The notes beneath the pieces are model-generated. The model made no database searches and was not told where the DNA came from. It saw only the letters and a list, made by a program, of their open reading frames with translations. Positions 2,895 to 41,470 of a stretch of 41,470 nucleotides of DNA are shown here, one piece after another. Where the stretch lies: positions 1-41,470 of IMG/VR virus record IMGVR_UViG_2690316195_000001. One strand, given 5' to 3'. This DNA comes from a virus (taxonomy: Duplodnaviria; Heunggongvirae; Uroviricota; Caudoviricetes). The position numbers and the translations under genes are program-made. Position 1 is the stretch's first letter, and each line of letters opens with the position of its first letter.

Positions 2895-3438
2895 GGTTAA
2901 CCTCCTGCGGCGGCTCCGGTAGCGGCATCCAGTGAGTTATTTCATCGGCAAAGATATCTGAGTTAAGTTCCGTCCAACTATTCCAATACCCAGATTCATC
3001 CCACCATTTAACCTCGACATGCTCGCCGTCGGTCACTAACACATCAGCATACCCTTTCGGCATTCGCTCACTACAGCTTATCCAAGCATCCGGAGTTACC
3101 GGAGAGTTGCCATTTACATCGAAGTTTGGCTCTGCGTCCTGAACCAGGAGGATGTAACCATTCTTGGCAGTATCAAGTTCTAACGCTTCGGTGACGGTGC
3201 CGAAATAGCGATTACCTAAATCAGCATCACAAGTGCTTACATCAATGGAAACTTCCATGCCTTCGATCAATTCTGGCAAGTTGTAAGTTTGGCTTACAGG
3301 TTCGGCTTCCAGTGAGGCTAACGCAATCCGTGCCAGTTCTTCCGCTTCTTCTGCTGGCAGTACAACGTTGCTACCCGGTCCGTATGTTTCGCGCCACTGC
3401 TTGATTGTCAGCAGTCGCTCTTTGGTCATAGTGGTCAT
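2887..3438 (-). CDS. DUF551-domain phage protein (start trimmed to MTTMTKERLL)
   Basis: C-terminal ...ITHWMPLPEPPQ signature of DUF551; AAGGAGAG RBS upstream of the ATG at 3438; the 5' part of the track ORF overlaps the upstream gene. Confidence 0.65.
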   Translation of the reverse strand: MTTMTKERLLTIKQWRETYGPGSNVVLPAEEAEELARIALASLEAEPVSQTYNLPELIEGMEVSIDVSTCDADLGNRYFGTVTEALELDTAKNGYILLVQDAEPNFDVNGNSPVTPDAWISCSERMPKGYADVLVTDGEHVEVKWWDESGYWNSWTELNSDIFADEITHWMPLPEPPQEVNRG

Positions 3439-3439
3439 A

Positions 3440-3946
3440 TCACTCTCCTTTGATGCGAACGCCAGCGACGCGTGGCACATTAACTTCCACAATGCGCACA
3501 GTTGGTTTGTACATCTCAATTGCTGTCAGCCAGTCAGCGCCGGTCATGCGCTTTTCTGCATCGCCATTAGTCCACTTAACCGGCACACCAATAGCCTTCA
3601 TCGCGATTTCTATTTCCCCGGCAATGGCGCTTTTTCCGCAACCAGTAAAACCAGATACAACGACAAGAACTTCGCCTTTGGCTGGTTTTATTTCCCGTGC
3701 TTCCAGTTCTGCAATGCGCTTTTTTGCTGCTTCCAGTTCATCCAGTAATGCCAGCACAGCAGCCGGATTGGCTGCTGCTATGAATCGCTTATTGGCGCGC
3801 TTATCTGGTCCTGCGCATAATGCTATGTAGTAATTGCCATTCAGTCCGGCATCAGCAATTACCCCATAGTAGTCATCAGTACACCATTCGCCTGGTGTTG
3901 CATTTTCTGCCGCCATTCGCAGTGCCTGGTAATTAATTTCGCTCAC
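3440..3946 (-). CDS. Ead/Ea22-like protein (GTG start)
   Basis: N-terminal VSEINYQALRMAAENATPGEW and coiled-coil segment typical of Ea22-like proteins; GGGGAGG RBS 5-6 nt upstream of the GTG at 3944-3946. Confidence 0.65.
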   Translation of the reverse strand: MSEINYQALRMAAENATPGEWCTDDYYGVIADAGLNGNYYIALCAGPDKRANKRFIAAANPAAVLALLDELEAAKKRIAELEAREIKPAKGEVLVVVSGFTGCGKSAIAGEIEIAMKAIGVPVKWTNGDAEKRMTGADWLTAIEMYKPTVRIVEVNVPRVAGVRIKGE

Positions 3947-15500: not shown

Positions 15501-15667
15501 TTGACCCAAATCGAAGTTACGAACAAGAAAGCGTCGAGCGGGCTTTAACGTGCGCTAACTGCGGTCAGAAGCTGCATGTGCTGGAAGTTCACGTGTGCTC
15601 AGATTGCTGCGCAGAACTGATGAGCGATCCGAATAGCTCAATGTACGAGGAAGAAGACGATGAATGA
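15497..15667 (+). CDS. ninF: NinF (56 aa, GTG start), not in the ORF track
   Basis: [33 protein letters not shown]...[14 protein letters not shown] matches lambda NinF by recall; GTGA overlap with ninE. Confidence 0.7.
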
Positions 15668-16382
15668 GTTAATAAATGGCAATGCCATCAAAATGACAAG
15701 CATTGAAATTGCTGAGTTGGTTGGTAAGCGTCATGACAATGTGAAACGTACCATCGAAACGCTGGCTAAAAATGGTGTTATCCGGCTTCCTCAAATTGAG
15801 GTTTCCGAAAGAATCAATAACTTAGGGTTCAATGTTCAGTACGAGCATTACGTCTTCGAGGGCGAACAAGGTAAGCGAGACAGTATTGTCGTTGTTGCCC
15901 AGTTGTCGCCGGAATTCACCGCTCGCCTTGTTGACCGCTGGCGAGAGCTTGAAGAAGCTGCGGTTAATATCCCAAAAACGCTACCAGAAGCGTTGCGCCT
16001 TGCTGCTGACCTTGCTGAGCAGAAAATGCAACTGGAAAACCAGCTCGCAATTGCCGCACCTAAAGTTGAGTTTGCCGATCGCGTTGGCGAGGCCAGCGGA
16101 ATTTTGATTGGAAACTTTGCAAAGGTTGTTGGAATTGGTCCAAACAAACTGTTTGCGTGGATGCGCGATCACAAAATCCTTATTGCTTCAGGTTCCCGGC
16201 GCAATGTGCCAATGCAGGAATATATGGATCGCGGCTATTTCACAGTGAAAGAAACAGCGTTCAACACAAATCACGGAATACAGATATCGTTCACCACAAA
16301 AATCACCGGGCGTGGTCAACAGTGGCTGACCAGAAGGCTGCTCTATAGCGGAATGCTGAAAGTAACAGGGGAGGCTGCTTAA
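15660..16382 (+). CDS. Rha-family regulator / antirepressor (N-terminal Rha domain, C-terminal ANT/KilAC domain)
   Basis: N-terminus NGNAIKMTSIEIAELVGKRHDNVKR typical of Rha; C-terminal half typical of the antirepressor ANT domain. Confidence 0.75.
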   Translation: MNELINGNAIKMTSIEIAELVGKRHDNVKRTIETLAKNGVIRLPQIEVSERINNLGFNVQYEHYVFEGEQGKRDSIVVVAQLSPEFTARLVDRWRELEEAAVNIPKTLPEALRLAADLAEQKMQLENQLAIAAPKVEFADRVGEASGILIGNFAKVVGIGPNKLFAWMRDHKILIASGSRRNVPMQEYMDRGYFTVKETAFNTNHGIQISFTTKITGRGQQWLTRRLLYSGMLKVTGEAA

Positions 16383-32261: not shown

Positions 32262-34655
32262 ATGGCTAATTACCGTGATTTGTTAGAGCAGGCTGGCGCA
32301 CGTTACGGTGTGCCAGAAGGGTTGATGACTGCACTGGGTGCCAAGGAGTCTTCTTACAACCCTGCCGCAGTAAGCTCCGCCGGGGCTGTAGGATTGACTC
32401 AGGTCATGCCTGGGACATGGCGTGATATGGGTTATACCGATGAGCAAATGCAAAACCCCGAATATCAGGCTGACGCTGGCGCGCGCTATCTGGCAAAGAT
32501 GTACCAGCAGTTTGGTAACTGGCGTGACGCTCTTCAGGCTTATCACGACGGTCCCGGCAACGTTATGAAGGCAAAGCGTGGTGAATATACGCCAGGACCT
32601 GAAGGCCGCGGTTACGTTGATGATCGCTTTGCTCAATGGGCGGGTGACCCGGTGACAGACTCAACAGTCGAACAGCGCGCCACCTCTGCAAAGGTACATC
32701 CTCAGCAAGACCCTAACAACCCGTTTGCACAACTGGAAGCACAGTCATCCGAACAAGTATCGGCATCAGGCGTGCAGTCAGACCCAAATAATCCATTTGC
32801 TCAGATTGAGCAGCAGGCAGCCAGTCAGCAGCCACCCCAACCCGTAAGTTCTGTCGCACCGAAACCTGTTCAGCAGCAAGGCGGAATAATGTCTGACCTT
32901 GGTAATGGACTTGCTGAAACCGGGCGCGGCTTACTACAGGCAGGAATCAACGTAGCGAACATACCTGCTGAACTCACTGATGCTGTAACAAGCGCGGCGG
33001 CTTGGGCTGGCGGTAAACTCGGCATTGGCGATGGTACATATCAACCAGCACCACGAGTAACAACGCAGGGATTAGAGCAGGACTTTGGCCTTCAGCAAGG
33101 CGCGCTGACTCCACAAACGACAGAGGGAAGGGTATTTGCTGAAGCATTACCTTACCTCACTCCTGCTGGCGTTGAGAGAGCGGCAACACAGGCACCAACA
33201 CTTGCTGGTCGAATTGCTCAGGGGGCAACTCGCCTTCTAGCAGAAAACGCAGTTGGATCACTTGCTGCAAACAGTGCGAAAGATGATGCGGAAGCACTCG
33301 CCACCGATTTAGGCGTTGGTGTGCTGGCTGGCGGTACTATTAACGCTGCCGGACGTGGATTAGGTGCTGCTTATCGTGGTGTTCGTGGTTCGATAGCACC
33401 AGAAGCTCAACAGGCTATCAGGTTTGCAGAGCGTGAAGGAGTTCCTCTGCACACCACAGACCTGTTACAGCCTACTTCCCGCGTCGGGAAAATGGCGCAG
33501 ACTACAGCAGAAAATATCCCTCTGGCTGGCACAAGCGGAATGAGAGCAACGCAACAGGAAGCGAGAAGCCAGTTGGTGCAGAGATTTGCTGATAAATTCG
33601 GTGAGTATGATCCATCTGTTGTTATTGACAGCCTTAAAGCGAAAACATCAGGAATTCGTCGTGCCGCCGGTAATCGACTGGAGCAGGTTCAGAATGCTAT
33701 GGCTGGAGTAAACATTCAGCCTGCGCGAGCAATTCAGCAGATTGATACAGAAATATCTAATCTGCAGAAGCTTGGTAAGGTAGCTGATAACGAGACAATT
33801 TCAAAACTTCAGTCATATCGTGATGAGCTTGTTCGCAATGCTGGCCCTGATGGTCCGGTTAATCTGGATTTGAAGCAATTAAGCGATCTGCGCAGCCAGT
33901 TCAGAATGGACGTGAAGGGGGAGCGACCAGTGTTACCAAACCGTTCCGATGCCGCCATTCAACGTGTTTACAAGGCGATGACCGACGATATCAATGGTGC
34001 CATTGGTCAGAATCTTGGCAACGATACTCTCCGTAAATATCAGCAGGCCAATGCCGTCTACGCTGACGAAGCGGCGAAACTAAAGAATACCAGGCTGAAG
34101 AATGTTCTCATGAAAGGAGACCTGACGCCGGAAGTTGTCAACAACATGCTATTCAGCAAGAACAAATCGGAAATTAAGACGCTGTATAACTCAGTTGGTC
34201 GTGTTGGCAGGGCGCAAATGCGCAATGGCATCATTGGAAAGGCGATGGAGAAATCTGGCGGATCCCCTGACCAGTTCCTTCGGCAGCTTAACATCCTGCA
34301 AAACCAGACTGGCATCACATTTAAGGGGCAGGACGCTGCTTATCTGAAAGGATTAAAAAACTACCTGCAATCCACGCAGCAGGCTGCAAAAGCGGCAGTA
34401 ACAACACCCACAGGGCAGCAAACTATCCCGTTCATTATTGGGTATGGGACGGCAATGAACCCGGCGACAACTGGCGCAGCGGTAAGCTACGGACTTCTTA
34501 CTCGCGCCTATGAGAGCGAACCATTCAGAAATGCAATGCTCCGAATGGCAAACACCCCACGCGGATCAACAGCCTTTGAGAAAGCAATGCAGCAGGCACA
34601 AAAGGCAATTAACGCTCTGACGCAGGGGGCTAAGTCTGATGCGTTGTCAGAATAG
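32262..34655 (+). CDS. Ejection protein (gp16 position) with N-terminal lytic transglycosylase domain
   Basis: 797 aa; N-terminus carries an SLT-like motif (ALGAKESSYNPAAVSSAGAVGLTQVMPGTWRD...YHDGPGNV). Confidence 0.75.
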   Translation: MANYRDLLEQAGARYGVPEGLMTALGAKESSYNPAAVSSAGAVGLTQVMPGTWRDMGYTDEQMQNPEYQADAGARYLAKMYQQFGNWRDALQAYHDGPGNVMKAKRGEYTPGPEGRGYVDDRFAQWAGDPVTDSTVEQRATSAKVHPQQDPNNPFAQLEAQSSEQVSASGVQSDPNNPFAQIEQQAASQQPPQPVSSVAPKPVQQQGGIMSDLGNGLAETGRGLLQAGINVANIPAELTDAVTSAAAWAGGKLGIGDGTYQPAPRVTTQGLEQDFGLQQGALTPQTTEGRVFAEALPYLTPAGVERAATQAPTLAGRIAQGATRLLAENAVGSLAANSAKDDAEALATDLGVGVLAGGTINAAGRGLGAAYRGVRGSIAPEAQQAIRFAEREGVPLHTTDLLQPTSRVGKMAQTTAENIPLAGTSGMRATQQEARSQLVQRFADKFGEYDPSVVIDSLKAKTSGIRRAAGNRLEQVQNAMAGVNIQPARAIQQIDTEISNLQKLGKVADNETISKLQSYRDELVRNAGPDGPVNLDLKQLSDLRSQFRMDVKGERPVLPNRSDAAIQRVYKAMTDDINGAIGQNLGNDTLRKYQQANAVYADEAAKLKNTRLKNVLMKGDLTPEVVNNMLFSKNKSEIKTLYNSVGRVGRAQMRNGIIGKAMEKSGGSPDQFLRQLNILQNQTGITFKGQDAAYLKGLKNYLQSTQQAAKAAVTTPTGQQTIPFIIGYGTAMNPATTGAAVSYGLLTRAYESEPFRNAMLRMANTPRGSTAFEKAMQQAQKAINALTQGAKSDALSE

Positions 34656-34745
34656 CTTTTCAAACACCAGGAGCGTGTAAAAACCAAATATGTAGAACGC
34701 GAGGTTTATCGTACCACTCTGCATAGGCGATACCTTTGCTGATTG

Positions 34746-35231
34746 TTATCTTATGTTACTGCTACTGTTGCATGTGACTGTATTTCCAAACCCTGAATTG
34801 CAGTTTGTGTAAGTGTCAACGCGTGTTGGATAGGGTTGAGTTATAACAGGCTGTCTCGCTTTTTGCTCGATCGCTTGCATTGTGTTTACAGCCTGATAAT
34901 TCAATAAAGCCTGCTGGAATGCTTGGCTTTGTGCTATTTGTTGGGCTTGTTCTTGGCTTTGTAATTGAACATAAAGATTCTGAAGCTCAAGTCTTGCCTG
35001 TGCGTCACTTATCTTGCCTTCATCGACACCTTGCCCGAGCATCTTTGCAGCAAGGACATACAGCTTAGGTGTTGGTGCTGATGCCATGCGTGAGTCGTTC
35101 TTCACACTGGCATCAAGGCAATTAGCCATATCGCTAAGCTTTTGATAGCGTTGTTCGCAACTTGCTTGATAGTCACTTACTTTTGCGCATCCAACCAGTA
35201 GAAGCGGGATAATTAACAGTGATTTTTTCAT
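34746..35231 (-). CDS. Lipoprotein of unknown function (moron on opposite strand)
   Basis: Start trimmed to MKKSLLIIPLLLVGC (lipobox LVGC) with AAGGAGAG RBS; Gln-rich mature region with several Cys. Confidence 0.7.
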   Translation of the reverse strand: MKKSLLIIPLLLVGCAKVSDYQASCEQRYQKLSDMANCLDASVKNDSRMASAPTPKLYVLAAKMLGQGVDEGKISDAQARLELQNLYVQLQSQEQAQQIAQSQAFQQALLNYQAVNTMQAIEQKARQPVITQPYPTRVDTYTNCNSGFGNTVTCNSSSNIR

Positions 35232-35301
35232 ATGGTTAACTCTCCTTAGTTTTTCACAGGATATCATGAAGGCAATGCCATTTTATCCGGAAACTAGATT
35301 T

Positions 35302-35568
35302 CTATGTTTCCTTTTTATTATTGCTATACATGGTCTTAAGCGTTTCAAAAACCATTTTCTTAACCATATCAGATTGTTGTTCTGCCATACGCTCTGCATC
35401 GTCAATGTAAACGGATGCAGAGCTTTGTTTAGCCAACGATTCTTCAATCGCTGCAATTATCTCTGAGTTCAGCGATCTGTTATTCATCTTCGCACGCTGC
35501 TTAATTTTCGCGTGGAGTTCATGCGGAAGTCTCAAGTGAAACTGCGCCTCGTCGTATTTACTGTACAT
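35302..35568 (-). CDS. mnt: Mnt-like ribbon-helix-helix repressor (Arc/MetJ fold)
   Basis: FHLRLPHELHAKIKQRAKMNNRSLNSEI...DDAERMAEQQSDMVKKMVFETLK resembles P22 Mnt (FNFRMPMEVREKLKFRAEANGRSMNSEL...NDAERLADEQSELVKKMVFDTLK). Confidence 0.8.
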   Translation of the reverse strand: MYSKYDEAQFHLRLPHELHAKIKQRAKMNNRSLNSEIIAAIEESLAKQSSASVYIDDAERMAEQQSDMVKKMVFETLKTMYSNNKKET

Positions 35569-35689
35569 CCTTGATGCCTCACCAGTTGGGTGGAATGGCA
35601 TCGTAACCTACTGGATAAATACTCAATAGTACCATTTCGGTATGCAATCACATCATGGTTGCATCATATCATTCGTCTGGAGCAATGAA

Positions 35690-37582
35690 ATGTCAGATAT
35701 CACCGCAAATGTTGTGGTAAGCATGCCTTCGCAACTCTTCACTATGGCTCGTTCTTTTAAAGCCGTAGCCAATGGCAAAATTTATATCGGTAAAATTGAC
35801 ACTGACCCGGTAAATCCTGAAAACCAGATTCAGGTTTATGTGGAGAACGAAGACGGTTCTCACGTTCCTGTTTCGCAACCAATCATCATTAACACTGCTG
35901 GATATCCGGTATATAACGGACAGATTGCCAAGTTCGTAACTGTGCAAGGCCATTCTATGGCTGTTTATGATGCATATGGTGCGCAGCAGTTCTATTTTCC
36001 TAATGTGCTGAAGTATGACCCCGATCAGGCATTGCCAGCTTTCATAAGTAAATTGGCAGCAGTTGATGGTGAATCTTATATTGTTGGGGCGACTTATGAA
36101 CAAATAAGGACATCTAATGTTTCTGGAACGCAAATAAAATGCGTAGGAAGAGAACATAATAAGGATGGAGGGGAAGGATGGTTCTTCCTTGACTCAGATG
36201 ATACAACGACTGAAGATGATGATGGAACAGTATTAATTGATGCAGTCGGCCGTCGCTGGAAGCGTTCATATAATGGCGCAAAAATGGCTTCATGGTTTGG
36301 CGTGAAATCTGGAACAGAGGTTTCACCTGCTATTCAAAATATGCTTAATACTGGTACTGGAGGTATAGAAATTAAGGATGGGCAATACAATTCTACCACA
36401 AAAGTTACAGTAAACCACTCTGGATCAAATTTTCCTGTAATGGGAAGAAAAAGTAAGAGGTTTGACTTTACTGGCGAGTCAATGGTGAATACTGCATTTA
36501 ACACCAATGGCAATGATTTCCTTGAGTATATAGGTAATTCAGAAGGGGACGGGCAGGGTGTGCATAGCGGTATGAAGTTATCTAATTTCACTGTTTATGG
36601 TACTGGTAACTCTGGAGTTGGATTACGGTTAAGCAATGCTGCATACCTAAAAGTTGAGGATGTGTATCTCGTAAGAAATAATTCAGGCTTGGTAATAACA
36701 GGAGTTCTTACCAGTGAATTTAACAGAATTAACTCTCAATATAATAACTACGGTATGTACATCAACGGAGGAACAAACAGCACAGTTAACGCACTAAAAA
36801 TAAATGGTGTTTTTAGTGGTAACTCAAAATTTGGAATTGAAGGAGATATAGGCACAAGGATAAATCTAAACAACTGCAATTTTGAGGGTAATGGAACTCA
36901 GGGAGATACTGGTACAGGAGGTGTTTACCTAAGAGCTAAAGAACCAATGTCTGTGATAAATATATCTGATTGCTATTTTGAAGCAAATCAAGGAATATCA
37001 GACATTCAGGTTAATAACATGACATCTTCACCTCTTATAGTAAATATCAATTCATGCACATTTATAAGGGGGAATTCATCAGGCGGTTATTGTACATATG
37101 TGATTAGAGCGTTAAGCACTGGTGGTGGGCGTGTCATTGTTAACCTTAATGGGTGTCATTTTTTTACTCAAACAGCTTTTGGATACATACCTAGCGCTTC
37201 GAGACCATTTATCTCAGGAGGTACTTATATGACTTTAAATGGAATGGATACCTGTCATTTTAGTGAGGACATAAGCAAGTCTATATCTACGGTAAGCACT
37301 TCATCGGTGATTTCTGGAAGTGTAACATCGGCAGGTGTTGCGTATGCACCATCTTATTTAACAATAGCAAAACAATCCACAGGGGTATATTCAATTGATA
37401 GCACTTTCTCATATGGACCAACAGTAAATGACTTTCAGGTAGTAGCAAGTACTAAAACTAACGGGTTTAAGGTGCTATATGCAGGCAAGCCAAGCACAAC
37501 AGCCATCAGGATCGTGACCACTGATAACTCTGGCAACTTGGCTGATGCAGATTTTGACTTTATGATAACAAGAGTTAGATAA
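35690..37582 (+). CDS. Tailspike with P22-type head-binding domain and divergent beta-helix receptor-binding domain
   Basis: N-terminal about 125 aa ([43 protein letters not shown]...VLKYDPDQ) match the P22 gp9 head-binding domain; remainder is a repetitive, AT-rich beta-helix-like region. Confidence 0.9.
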
Positions 37583-37586
37583 AATT

Positions 37587-37619
37587 AAGGGCGAATACCG
37601 CCCTTAGCTTATTTTTTTA
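37587..37619. terminator. Bidirectional rho-independent terminator between convergent tailspike and gtrC
   Basis: Stem AAGGGCG/CGCCCTT, loop AATAC, with A-rich 5' flank and T-rich 3' flank. Confidence 0.6.
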
Positions 37620-38880
37620 TTATATCTAAATACCATCCTGAGTGTGGTAGTGTGTGCATTTTCACGCGGCTCCCTGGCTCTGCTGTCTCATATTTGTATG
37701 CCTCTTGCACCCATCCATTGTTAGGTCTTTTTTCAATTTTAAAGCTAACAATTCCAGATAGAATTACTGAGCAAGCCACTATGCAAAATGCTAATTTCTT
37801 TACATGCCCATGAAGCATATTAGTGAATGCTAGAAGTATCGACACCCAAAATATGGCCGGTATGACAAAATACCTTTGTCCTGGTCCTATTTGTAAGAGA
37901 GGCCATTGAGGCTGGTCTCTTGCAATGACTGGTCTGGCAAGGGCAAATCCCAACATAAGATAAGGAAAAATCACTAATGCTTTTTCTTTCCAGTTCCCTT
38001 TTAATAGCACGTATGCACTAATTGATAGGCCACATAAAGAAACAAAGTAATTTAAAGCATGCAGATCCCACACCTTTCTTGATAAGCTCTCGCTAAGAAA
38101 TGAGCCAAGGAATACTCTGGAGGATAGTATATCCATCAAAATACCTACACCTGCACCAAGTGGCGCGGTCGGTCGAGAGCCTTTAGAAGAGAGAAGTATG
38201 GCGGCTATCTGAATTAAACACACTATTGCGAAAGTTATGTAGAATAAGTTTAAGTTTCTGAATGCATTTTTTACTGCATTGATAGGAGTTTTTAGAATAT
38301 CTCCGTTTGTAATTCTTAGTAAGGCAACAGGAGCTAAAAAAACAATGAATGGCCCACTTAGGCCAGCCACAACCATCACCAAAAAGTCGTGTGCTTTCCA
38401 ATATAATCCATCAGTTCTATCTGCTACCAGCACCAAGAATAGCCATATTGCCATATACCAATGAGTGTTGGTTACGTTGGCATGCACCTCTTCAAGGTGT
38501 GGCATAGTTAAAATGAAGATTGAAATTAATATTCTTGGATATATAGAAACGCTTTTGAATCTATTAGATAGTATGAAGGTTATTATTACGCATCTTATCG
38601 ATAATGCAATAACAGTGAAAATAAAAGGTGATAGATATAATGGGAACAGCATGGAGAATGTCGCAACAAGTTTTGAAATTGTCTGATAGTAACCATCCTG
38701 TACTAAAATTATAGATTTCAGAGGGCCCAATGCATAAGCCTGACCAAGCCATACCCGTCCATCCTCTGCCCATAGTTGAGGGTGTGAAATAATATCAGGA
38801 CGACGCATGCAGAATATGATGAAACATATAACAAATATAATCAAAAACAAAAATATTCTGTTTGTGTTTATGCTATTCAT
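37609..38880 (-). CDS. gtrC: GtrC-like serotype-specific O-antigen glucosyltransferase (polytopic membrane protein)
   Basis: 423 aa, about 10 TM segments, AT-rich; ATGA overlap with gtrB; third gene of a gtrABC-type operon. Confidence 0.65.
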
Positions 38881-39800
38881 GATTGTTCCTTTTTCTTTAA
38901 AATATATCGTGGTCTGCATTTTACTTCCACATAAATTCTTCCTATATATTCACCAAGTACACCGATACCGATAAGTTGAATACCTCCAAGGAAAAGAATG
39001 GAGACCAATAACGATGGATATCCACGAACAGCATTGCCGAATACAAGCGTGTCAAAAATCATCCATGCACCATAAAGAAAAGCAATTCCAGCAACGAACA
39101 ATCCGATATAAGTCCACATGCGCAGCGGGAATGTTGAGAAACTGGTTATCCCCTCAAGGGCAAGGTTCCACAGTTTCCATCCGTTAAATTTAGTGCTGCC
39201 TGCGACTCGTTCTGCTCGTGCATATTCAACGACATCGGTGCGTCCGCCAACCCAGCTCAGCACGCCCTTCATAAACAGGTTGCGCTCTGGCATGAGCTTA
39301 ATGTTTTCCACCACCTCGCGAGACATCAAGCGGAAATCACCAACGTTTTCCTCGATCTGCGGGTTGCTAATTTTGTTATGCAGCTTATAGAACCACTCGG
39401 CGGTTTTCCTCTTCAGTCTGCCATCCGTTGATCGGTCAGATCGTTTAGCAAGCACCATATCGGCACCTGCTTGCCACTTTTCAATCAGATGAGGAATAAC
39501 CTCAATCGGGTCTTGCAGGTCAACATCAATAGGAATAACAGCATCGCCTGTTGCATGGTCTAACCCTGCGAATAATGCTGGTTCTTTACCAAAGTTTCGT
39601 GTAAATGACAGCGGAACAACTAGAGGATCTGAAACAGCCAGAGCATTAATAATTGACTCCGTAGCGTCTTTGCTGCCGTCATTTATGAAAACAATTTCCA
39701 CTTCGTATGGCTTCAACTCTTCGAATTCACGTACCGTTTTATAAAAAATTGGTATTGCTTCTTCTTCATTGAAGACAGGAACTACAAGAGATATCTTCAT
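38877..39800 (-). CDS. gtrB: GtrB bactoprenol glucosyltransferase (GT2 family)
   Basis: 307 aa; GT2 motifs ([19 protein letters not shown]-x-D region) plus two C-terminal TM helices. Confidence 0.9.
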
Positions 39801-40312: not shown

Positions 40313-41470
40313 TCACTCCACCTTTTCATCAAGCCAGTCCGCCCACCATTGCATCATTTCCCTGCGTTTATCGAGATACTGCGCATGGTTGTAAATCCCG
40401 CGCACAGAACCGCCGTTGGCATGTGCCAGTTGCACTTCAATAGCATCAGCAGGCCATTCGTGCTCGTTCATAATCGTGCTGAATTCATGCCTGAATCCGT
40501 GACCGCTTTCCAGACCCTCATAGCCGATTTGTTTGATCACAAGCAATACCGCGTTCTCGCAGATTGGCTTTTTCTTATCGTTGCGGCCGGCAAAAACAAA
40601 CTCTGATACTGGTTTGGTGATAGAGCTTAGCGTAGTGAGAAGTTCAACCACCTGGTCTGACATAGGAACCACATGAATTTTGCGTCCCTTCATCACACTG
40701 GCGTTGATAGTGATAATCCTGTTTTCAAAATCGACGTTATTCCATAGCATAGAACGAAGCTCTTTCGTTCTTAGGGCTGTATAGCGTAAAACCTTGGTGG
40801 CAATGAGCGATACGATACTTCCTGAAAATGTTGCAAGTGCTTTGTTGAATGCCGGGATCTGGTCGGCAGGTAAAAATGGGAAGTTCTTCTTGCGGTATCC
40901 CTTCATGGCGTCAGCAAGGTCAGGTGCCGGGTTATATTTAGCCCTACCAGTGACAATAGCGTAACGGAAAACCTCGCCGCATCTTCTGCGGGCTTTGTTG
41001 GCTCGCTCCATTGCACCGCGATCTTCAAATCTGCGGATTACTTCCAGCAGTTGCATCGGCTCAATATCCTGAATTTCAAGGCCGCCGATGATAGGTAAAA
41101 TGTCGTCATCAAACATTTTTGCAAGTTCAGTCGCATACCCTACTGACCAGACTTGCTTCTTGTGCTCGTACCATTCCTTGTAAATCGCACTAAAGGAATT
41201 GTTGTTAGACGAAGCCTTTTTCGCCTTTACCGGATCGATGCCAACCGAGATGTCTTTCCTCGCAGTCCATGCCTTATCCCTTGCCTCCTGCAAAGTCATT
41301 AGCGGATATTTTCCTACGGTCAGGATTTTCTCCTTACCGTCAATCTTGTAGCGAAGCTGCCATACCTTTTTCCCTGACACAGGGACATAAAGGTACAGGC
41401 CATTACCATCGAGAAGGCGGTATGGTTTTTCTTTCGGCTTTGCTGCTTCAATCTGCTTAACGGTGAGCAT
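40313..41470 (-). CDS. int: Tyrosine integrase, P4/CP4-57 type
   Basis: 385 aa; N-terminal arm-binding DUF4102-like region (KPYRLLDGNGLYLYV...WQLRYK) and C-terminal catalytic domain (R...HGFRHEF...Y); start codon is the last codon of the window. Confidence 0.9.
   Translation of the reverse strand: MLTVKQIEAAKPKEKPYRLLDGNGLYLYVPVSGKKVWQLRYKIDGKEKILTVGKYPLMTLQEARDKAWTARKDISVGIDPVKAKKASSNNNSFSAIYKEWYEHKKQVWSVGYATELAKMFDDDILPIIGGLEIQDIEPMQLLEVIRRFEDRGAMERANKARRRCGEVFRYAIVTGRAKYNPAPDLADAMKGYRKKNFPFLPADQIPAFNKALATFSGSIVSLIATKVLRYTALRTKELRSMLWNNVDFENRIITINASVMKGRKIHVVPMSDQVVELLTTLSSITKPVSEFVFAGRNDKKKPICENAVLLVIKQIGYEGLESGHGFRHEFSTIMNEHEWPADAIEVQLAHANGGSVRGIYNHAQYLDKRREMMQWWADWLDEKVE

Follow-up and report, generated by a model that had tools for sequence, protein, structure and literature searches.

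What are two leftward genes, one for a lipoprotein and one for a repressor, doing in the middle of a rightward phage late operon, and what does the repressor control? This question is raised by IMG/VR record IMGVR_UViG_2690316195_000001, whose 41,470 nucleotides (nt) were analyzed in full (hereafter, the window) and represent a P22-like (Lederbergvirus) prophage of E. coli with its late operon on the + strand. An original prediction, made from the sequence alone, had placed two minus-strand genes between the ejection-protein genes and the tailspike gene, taken them to encode an Mnt-like repressor and a 161-amino-acid (aa) lipoprotein with an LVGC lipobox and a strong ribosome-binding site, assigned them to the sieA/immI position of P22, and noted that neither arc nor ant is adjacent. 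Each of these statements was borne out: both open reading frames (ORFs) lie between flanking genes on the + strand, and RefSeq/PGAP predicts the same two minus-strand ORFs in a 99.6% identical E. coli prophage; the P22 annotation has sieA to ant between genes 16 and 9; both Mnt domains were matched in Pfam and PDB; the ORF, lipobox, and Shine-Dalgarno sequence of the lipoprotein gene are present; and tblastn detected neither arc nor ant at the locus. On balance, we lean toward explaining the whole locus as a variant of the "ant moron" of P22-like phages composed of two separable modules, i.e., an autoregulated mnt cassette and an exclusion-type lipoprotein gene. The features on which this explanation draws are as follows.

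32262-34655, + strand: gp16-like DNA-ejection protein with an N-terminal SLT lytic transglycosylase domain (Pfam SLT, 2.8e-25); left moron boundary
34746-35231, - strand: lipoprotein gene, 161 aa (ORF; phrog_6067)
35240-35266, - strand: lipoprotein expression signals read from the sequence, namely Shine-Dalgarno sequence AAGGAGAG (complement 35240-35247) and extended -10-like element TGATATCCT (complement 35258-35266)
35302-35568, - strand: mnt, 88-aa ribbon-helix-helix repressor (Pfam, PDB)
35600-35626, - strand: predicted Pmnt in the P22 Pmnt register, with -10 TACGAT (complement 35600-35605) and -35 TTGAGT (complement 35621-35626)
35616-35621, + strand: Pant -10 remnant TAAATA (TATATT in P22), from register alignment with P22 Pant
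35628-35644, no strand: predicted Mnt operator AGTACCATTTCGGTATG in the P22 Omnt register; core TACC-N5-GGTA at 35630-35642
35642-35664, + strand: inverted repeat ATGCAATCA-CATCA-TGGTTGCAT, 8/9 complementary positions
35690-37582, + strand: tailspike gene, P22-type head-binding domain followed by a receptor domain (Pfam Head_binding, 7.4e-67); right moron boundary

The product of the repressor gene matched Pfam Arc (8.4e-15, residues 7-49) and Repressor_Mnt (4e-12, residues 57-81), as well as PDB entries 1mnt (5.7e-19) and 1qey (1.2e-6), i.e., it carries both a ribbon-helix-helix domain and the C-terminal tetramerization coiled coil of Mnt. Its start at 35568 agrees with all homologs and has the Shine-Dalgarno sequence GAGG. 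Relative to P22 immI, the gene lies in the same slot and orientation, and its product shares the two-domain architecture of P22 Mnt at 47% identity; the two differ in the recognition strand (HFNFR in P22 versus QFHLR in the window, where it reads A-Q-F-H-L-R-L-P with Gln9, His11, and Arg13), and P22 has arc, sar, and ant, which the window lacks. According to Sauer and colleagues, the specificity of Arc and Mnt is reportedly set by N-terminal residues. By these residues the Mnt proteins fall into three recognition classes, i.e., HFNFR (P22 and CUS-3), QFNLR (ST64T, Gally, Brookers, and Providencia), and QFHLR (the window, Sf101, IME10, VSe13, and a Klebsiella aerogenes prophage, with QFHLT in Tatumella morbirosei). 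As an aside, Mnt is widely misnamed "partition protein ATPase" in RefSeq phage records (Sf101, ST64T, P22 NC_002371, and epsilon34) and in phrog_795; the entries so named are this 83-88-aa ribbon-helix-helix repressor.

We compared the upstream regions of 14 mnt genes in one orientation. All 14 align on the Pmnt -10 (TAnnAT) and -35 (TTGnnn; CAATAG or CAATAA on the late strand) elements, and immediately after these elements each alignment reaches a palindrome that in P22 is the annotated Omnt, GGTCCAC-G-GTGGACC. In the window this register is occupied by the palindrome AGTACCATTTCGGTATG, 17 bp long, of partial two-fold symmetry, and beside the -35 element of the mnt promoter. The geometry is that of P22, with the operator center 10 bp upstream of the Pmnt -35 element. 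The elements themselves differ: the operator core is TACC-N5-GGTA in the window versus GGTCCAC-N-GTGGACC in P22, the Pmnt spacer is 15 bp versus 17 bp (annotated P22 Pmnt, TTGAGA-17-TATCAT, P22 locus L005 3299-3327), and the Pant hexamers of the window have decayed. Transcription from the predicted Pmnt would start at about 35592. The operator-like site is unique in the 41 kb of the window even when 3 mismatches are allowed, and no second Mnt operator was found near a Rha/ANT gene or elsewhere in the window. More symmetric versions occur in relatives (TACCGTTTCGGTA and CATACCATTTCGGTATG), and in 80 loci with the same Mnt, rightward homology ends just past the operator.

Covariation points to the same site. 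Among 240 IMG/VR loci sampled with three queries, the operator type follows the recognition class in every case (240/240), giving the pairs HFNFR/GGTCCAC-N-GTGGACC, QFNLR/AGACCAC-N-GTGGTCT, and QFHLR/TACC-N5-GGTA; upstream of the QFHLR-class mnt of the K. aerogenes prophage, no recognizable operator was seen. This covariation of operator and recognition residues fits the N-terminal specificity of Arc and Mnt. By register and covariation, then, the real Mnt operator is most likely AGTACCATTTCGGTATG at 35628-35644, and the statement of the original prediction that the Mnt target is unknown can be replaced by one predicted operator at the repressor's own promoter.

The same sample separates the Mnt classes by their neighbors. 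While arc stands beside mnt in 77/80 HFNFR loci, mnt leads straight into the tailspike gene in 80/80 QFNLR and 68/72 QFHLR loci; arc was found beside mnt in 0/72 QFHLR loci, and arc or ant beside a matching operator in 0/152 loci of the two orphan classes. The window follows this pattern: it does not hold the complete immI arrangement (mnt-arc-sar-ant, with arc and ant expressed from Pant under Mnt control), and tblastn searches for homologs of Arc, Ant (P22 and CUS-3), SieA (P22), and Bro-N found none at the locus or elsewhere in the window. No Pant -35 element is recognizable in the window by register alignment (orphan relatives show similar decay), and a promoter scan of the spacer returned no rightward promoter. 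The mnt gene is under purifying selection, with dN/dS of 0.28 relative to Sf101 and 0.11 relative to VSe13. Because operators are retained and mnt dN/dS is 0.11-0.28, the orphan Mnt cassette appears to be a working, self-regulated unit kept by selection, not debris.

As we read it, the cassette would consist of Pmnt, a single operator (35628-35644), and a tetrameric Mnt of distinct specificity class. With arc-ant and the strong rightward Pant lost, the sole local target of Mnt would therefore be the operator upstream of the Pmnt -35 element, and the simplest mechanism is that Mnt would autoregulate the leftward transcript of the lysogen. In the 70 nt that follow mnt no intrinsic terminator was detected, and none was detected after the lipoprotein gene either. 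Past mnt, the leftward transcript could therefore extend through the lipoprotein gene and from there into gene 16, whose 3' end it would cover in antisense. A promoter-like site that points leftward (CTGACA-17-AATGAT, 35668-35696, - strand, 9/12 matches) coincides with the opening codons of the tailspike gene. Transcription from it would cross the operator and enter mnt, but conservation of the MSD/MTD tailspike start is probably what created the site.

The interval itself is well charted. From gene 16 to gene 9, the P22 annotation lists sieA, orf59a, mnt, Pmnt/Pant, Oarc, Omnt, arc, sar, and ant. The interval was named the "ant moron" and found in ten types in sixteen genomes, including that of E. 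coli B7A (Villafane et al. 2008, PMC2629481), and ST64T and ST104 retain just mnt plus one gene of unknown function (PMC2629481). Orphan mnt genes have thus been noted before, and the phage L paper left open whether they are remnants (Zaworski et al. 2021, PMC8022706). Phages L, ST64T, and ST104 resemble the window in that mnt stands alone beside the tailspike gene, with one small unknown neighbor and the operator kept; they differ in recognition class (QFNLR, with AGACCAC-N-GTGGTCT), and their companion gene, orf62, is not the window lipoprotein gene. The B7A prophage matches the window at 97.6% over its full length. Among 5426 complete E. coli genomes, 104 carry the 1.15-kb segment at ≥80% coverage, B7A and O26:H11 strains being among them, and at least 1000 contigs encode the exact Mnt protein, as do at least 1000 the exact lipoprotein. 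As one form of the hypervariable ant moron (the immI/sieA region in P22-like phages), the locus is common and had already been diagrammed; what is new here is the identification of a likely operator for this Mnt class, the evidence for selection on orphan Mnt cassettes, and the delineation of an uncharacterized lipoprotein family.

The second module encodes a protein that begins with MKKSLLIIPLLLVGC followed by AKV. Its signal peptide, MKKSLLIIPLLLVG (MKK-SLLIIPLLLV-G-C15-A16), has the basic n-region, hydrophobic core, and lipobox of bacterial lipoproteins (LVGC, Cys15), with Ala and thus no Asp at position +2. Across 30 homologs, Cys15 is invariant, Gly14 is at least 90% conserved, and the +2 residue is non-Asp; Cys15 is also invariant in the wider family. 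In E. coli, any residue but Asp at +2 generally predicts sorting to the outer membrane, so that the protein is a credible substrate of the Lol pathway. Four further Cys residues are conserved (i.e., a Cys25/Cys38 pair and a C-terminal pair), which suggests two disulfides. Because of the lipobox, the lack of Asp at +2, and the four conserved Cys, the protein is most likely anchored in the outer membrane, facing the periplasm. A conserved core, KLYVLAAKxLG...DAQARLELQ, was also evident. An initial AlphaFold model built with close homologs only reached a pLDDT of 64, and Foldseek against PDB and BFVD gave nothing below E = 0.2; in an AlphaFold2 model with a pLDDT of 85.4, the N-domain is helical, a long helix is rich in Gln, and the C-terminus forms a beta-hairpin.

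With regard to its kinship, the lipoprotein is a full-length member of phrog_6067 (unknown function; 1.6e-110), and its 94 close homologs are all from Enterobacterales and all named hypothetical. The Pfam search returned only DUF2802 at E = 0.39, PADLOC returned none, and a stretch of NCBIfam GspK similarity, far below the cutoff, was discarded as spurious. No similarity to Cor, Llp, Bor, TraT, or SieA was detected, so that homology does not place it among known exclusion lipoproteins, and neither sequence nor fold comparison revealed a relative whose function is known. Its dN/dS relative to phage VSe13 is 0.039. It is further part of a larger, unnamed lipoprotein family (~125-160 aa; at 50% identity, 248 clusters), for which no Pfam or NCBIfam model and no known function were found. 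In common with the window protein, this family has the lipobox, a CE...C motif, a KLYxLxAxxL...DARxELQxLY core, and a C-terminal TxC...G....C hairpin; the members from P22-like prophages differ by an extra Gln-rich helix of ~35 aa. Our literature searches found no study of this lipoprotein.

The gene carries its own candidate expression signals. The Shine-Dalgarno sequence AAGGAGAG lies 8 nt before the ATG, and the predicted transcript start is at about 35250. The extended -10 motif TGnTAnnnT recurs at the same distance upstream in VSe13, two Tatumella species, a metagenomic genome, Serratia, and Klebsiella aerogenes, while a perfect TATAAT stands upstream of the gene in Morganella and in phage Brookers; in most genera, one or other of the two elements lies ~35-40 nt before the start codon. 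In the Morganella prophage (locus L018, ~3440-3500), an mnt 3' remnant (..LYNDKK stop) identical to the Brookers sequence lies upstream of the lipoprotein gene and supplies the perfect TATAAT; from this remnant, mnt appears to have been deleted there and the lipoprotein gene kept.

The gene also comes and goes independently of its neighbor. Among the 80 same-Mnt loci, the lipoprotein gene is present in 41 (38 of them with the 70-bp gap) and absent from 39. In every locus examined it immediately follows the gp16 stop codon, in convergent orientation to the gp16 gene, in P22-like prophages of ~10 enterobacterial genera. It is accompanied by mnt of either orphan class, or by Bro-N antirepressor genes (Serratia and K. 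aerogenes), or by neither (Yersinia ruckeri and Morganella); the Yersinia, Morganella, and Serratia prophages thus have it without mnt, and in Proteus phage Brookers it lies 17 bp after mnt. These features, i.e., presence or absence in collinear relatives, opposite strand, and a conserved -10-like element, are those of a moron, and the terminator of a classical moron is missing, as no intrinsic terminator was found. We therefore read the lipoprotein gene as an independent insertion/deletion moron with its own promoter-like element. The last 34 residues of the protein exist as two alleles that shuffle independently of the N-domain. Distant relatives are encoded within an island rich in toxin-antitoxin genes and among the cargo of a satellite-like element that has integrase, AlpA, and primase genes. 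Using distant members as tblastn queries, we found the family in sequenced phages only in five that are P22-like, and almost nowhere in plasmids; a scan of genome contigs gave 5 loci, and a profile word-index search gave few distant members.

Several further observations concern the surroundings of this gene. Between the lipoprotein gene and mnt, Gally (L003 3767-4186) has an extra late-strand gene for a second, unrelated lipoprotein (MKRIIGVVAGAILLSGCAT..., 139 aa, no Pfam match), and VSe13 (L001 3705-3995) has an extra late-strand 96-aa ORF annotated "antirepressor" (no Pfam match). In Serratia and K. aerogenes (L014 and L016, ~3350-3500), a perfect palindrome (TTGCAAAATTTTGCAA / TGTAAAATTTTACA) lies between the divergent lipoprotein and Bro-N genes, with a related half-site overlapping the lipoprotein -10 element; it looks like the operator of another regulator. 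Mosaic joints (window 35335 and 35248; L002 and L003) fall at functional borders: homology to Sf101/IME10 begins within the mnt 3' end, the last ~20 codons being different, and homology to Gally stops just upstream of the lipoprotein Shine-Dalgarno sequence.

What, then, might the lipoprotein do? The occupant of the same slot in P22, SieA, is an inner-membrane protein, expressed from the prophage, that blocks DNA injection via the ejection proteins (PMC10883804). The sieA gene likewise lies directly after the gene 16 stop codon, on the opposite strand, with its own promoter. The proteins differ: SieA is polytopic in the inner membrane and has an FxRYPxEAxxFNK motif, whereas the lipoprotein of the window has a predicted signal peptide of the cleaved type, its single N-terminal hydrophobic segment ends in the lipobox, and it thus lacks the features of a SieA; in tblastn, P22 SieA matched neither the window nor any of 80 related loci, a search that did not extend to SieA types B and C. 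T5 Llp, phi80/N15 Cor, and lambda Bor are, like the window protein, small phage lipoproteins with a lipobox that are encoded by accessory genes. In our proposal, the gene would be a moron with its own extended -10-type promoter and strong Shine-Dalgarno sequence in the P22 SieA slot, and its product would protect the lysogen against incoming phages through superinfection exclusion at the envelope or DNA-delivery step. Such an exclusion or defense role is our leading hypothesis, at close to even chances, because of the position, the opposite-strand signals, the predicted envelope location, the presence/absence pattern, the allelic shuffling, and the mobile-element contexts of relatives. A more far-reaching version, which is possible but doubtful, would have the whole family, widespread on mobile elements and with the window protein as its first member to be recognized, act as envelope-level anti-phage factors, with the window protein substituting for SieA by blocking DNA delivery at an outer-membrane or periplasmic step, the swappable C-terminal disulfide hairpin serving as specificity element, the orphan Mnt driving or tuning the lysogenic transcript, and "immI without ant" constituting an exclusion-gene cassette.

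Several points weigh against the combined explanation. Operator symmetry in the QFHLR class extends to only 4/8 pairs. All promoters here are consensus-level predictions; a promoter/terminator scan gave chance-level sites only and did not call the promoters that we infer by homology. Pmnt may moreover be weak, as its spacer is 15 bp versus 16-17 bp in relatives. On the side of the lipoprotein, the C-tail allele did not track the type of the gp16 C-terminus in 12 loci. Finally, strong conservation of a purely self-regulating Mnt is not really explained.

Of the competing explanations, the one that survives best concerns the lipoprotein, which might instead serve host fitness or virulence, for example through serum resistance of the Bor or TraT kind, tolerance of envelope stress, or adhesion. 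Lambda Bor is a known case of a prophage outer-membrane lipoprotein with a role of this sort, the gene is common in pathogenic lineages (O26:H11 and B7A), and its distant relatives sit in non-phage islands. We nevertheless consider this explanation unlikely, given that neither Pfam nor PHROGs revealed similarity to Bor or TraT, that across ~10 genera the gene is confined to the gp16-tailspike slot, whose known occupant SieA is an exclusion protein, and that shuffling of the C-terminal tail suggests an arms-race partner.

A second alternative addresses the conservation of a repressor with no local gene to repress, by proposing that orphan Mnt acts mainly in trans, silencing the Pant of superinfecting P22-like phages that share its operator and so blocking induction by foreign Ant. 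P22 Mnt does repress Pant, as the P22 annotation also records. Against this, none of the 152 orphan-class loci has arc or ant beside the matching operator, no prey with this operator was seen in our samples, and the ant-like genes of VSe13 and K. aerogenes, which flank mnt on its opposite side, have no TACC operator; we regard a trans role as quite unlikely.

Still less probable, in our judgment, is that orphan mnt is a decaying, functionless remnant of immI, the possibility left open for phage L (PMC8022706). The loss of arc, ant, sar, and the Pant hexamers would agree with decay, but the mnt reading frame is intact with both domains present, its dN/dS is low, the identical protein is found on at least 1000 contigs, and operators that covary with the recognition residues are kept in at least 150 orphan loci of two classes. 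We give similarly little credence to the proposal that the leftward, unterminated mnt-lipoprotein RNA itself protects the lysogen, acting antisense to the gene 16/tailspike mRNA of incoming relatives. Such a transcript, with no intrinsic terminator after either gene, would overlap late mRNA, and there is a precedent at the same locus in phage BTP1, whose prophage-expressed antisense RNA STnc6030 encodes protection (PMC7067206). Against this stand the strong protein-level purifying selection on both ORFs and the retention of the signal peptide, lipobox, and four Cys of the lipoprotein over large distances.

The original prediction had also put forward a 9-bp imperfect inverted repeat at 35642-35664 as a possible operator of the tailspike gene, so that Mnt would directly repress tailspike in the lysogen. 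The repeat is present, ending 26 nt upstream of the tailspike start (the true start is 35690, with Shine-Dalgarno sequence GGAG at 35679-35682), and some relatives have a perfect version of it (IME10, TGATTGCAT; three IMG/VR loci, ATGCAACCA). In addition, the gene beside the operator is always tailspike in both orphan Mnt classes, so that some link between Mnt and tailspike expression is conceivable, an idea that has been raised before (PMC2629481). An equal or better repeat arose, however, in 13% of dinucleotide-preserving shuffles of the 122-nt spacer, i.e., the repeat is at chance level; it is missing from same-Mnt loci with other right flanks; it is unlike the operator of any Mnt class, the Omnt register being occupied by the TACC palindrome; and there is no detectable rightward promoter for Mnt to repress. 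Its natural variants, moreover, include C-to-T changes that break DNA symmetry and keep RNA pairing; overall, changes from U-G to C-G or U-A, and from C-G to U-G, preserve pairing on the + strand RNA, with 99% of cells paired. The RNA fold has a z-score of -0.87, and covariation analysis found no double changes, with the shuffle control reaching the observed value in 402/500 runs. Probably, then, the repeat either forms a small hairpin in the tailspike mRNA 5' leader or arose by chance, and does not serve as the Mnt operator, a role that we consider marginally less probable again than decay or antisense protection; the palindrome at 35628-35644 fits instead.

A toxin-antitoxin-like pairing of mnt with its downstream gene, in which the ribbon-helix-helix protein would be the antitoxin, is scarcely credible and was rejected, in spite of weak Pfam matches between Mnt and two ribbon-helix-helix families, HicB and FitA, and the tandem arrangement of two genes on one strand, since those matches reflect a shared fold, the tetramerization domain is specific to Mnt, the partner is a secreted lipoprotein, and mnt and the lipoprotein gene each occur without the other.

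Beyond the moron, the window is bounded by the following two features.

1-1248, + strand: LacY-family sugar permease, a host gene at the left end (1.7e-193)
40313-41470, - strand: IntS-type integrase at the right end, directly after gtrA

The tailspike gene is followed by gtrA, gtrB, and a gene for a serotype-specific membrane protein, with the integrase gene at the right end. Because the integrase gene adjoins tRNA-Arg and yfdC in a 99.6% identical E. coli prophage (JX2), the att site is on the 5' side of int, in contrast to P22, where attP lies between gtrA and int. The gtrC position is taken by a 436-aa multi-pass membrane protein (37609-38919, - strand; no Pfam match), presumably the enzyme for serotype-specific modification of the O antigen; its gene shares 43 nt with the gtrB-like gene (38877-39800) at the 3' end of the latter. 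On the left of the moron, the gp16-like gene converges on the lipoprotein gene, and its product carries the PGAP name "lytic transglycosylase domain-containing protein" in the 99.6% identical prophage. A 240-aa ORF in the nin/early-right region (15660-16382, + strand) combines Rha (5.8e-9) and ANT/KilAC (1.7e-32) domains; it is the sole antirepressor-like gene of the prophage and has no Mnt operator nearby. An Rfam search of 34300-36100 gave no match.

The locus as such is ordinary, being a common variant of a region long known as an immunity and exclusion hotspot in P22-like phages. Its meaning lies first in the finding that two specificity classes keep matching operators, by which an Mnt without antirepressor is not a decaying leftover; the question of remnant or new function raised for phages L and ST64T thereby becomes simple and testable, and the well-studied Arc/Mnt system gains natural pairs of operators and recognition residues. 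The lipoprotein, for its part, is widespread (at least 1000 E. coli contigs, ~10 enterobacterial genera, and pathogen lineages) yet without known function. If it does exclude phages, this would bear on the host range of phages used in therapy and on how short-tailed phages cross the envelope.

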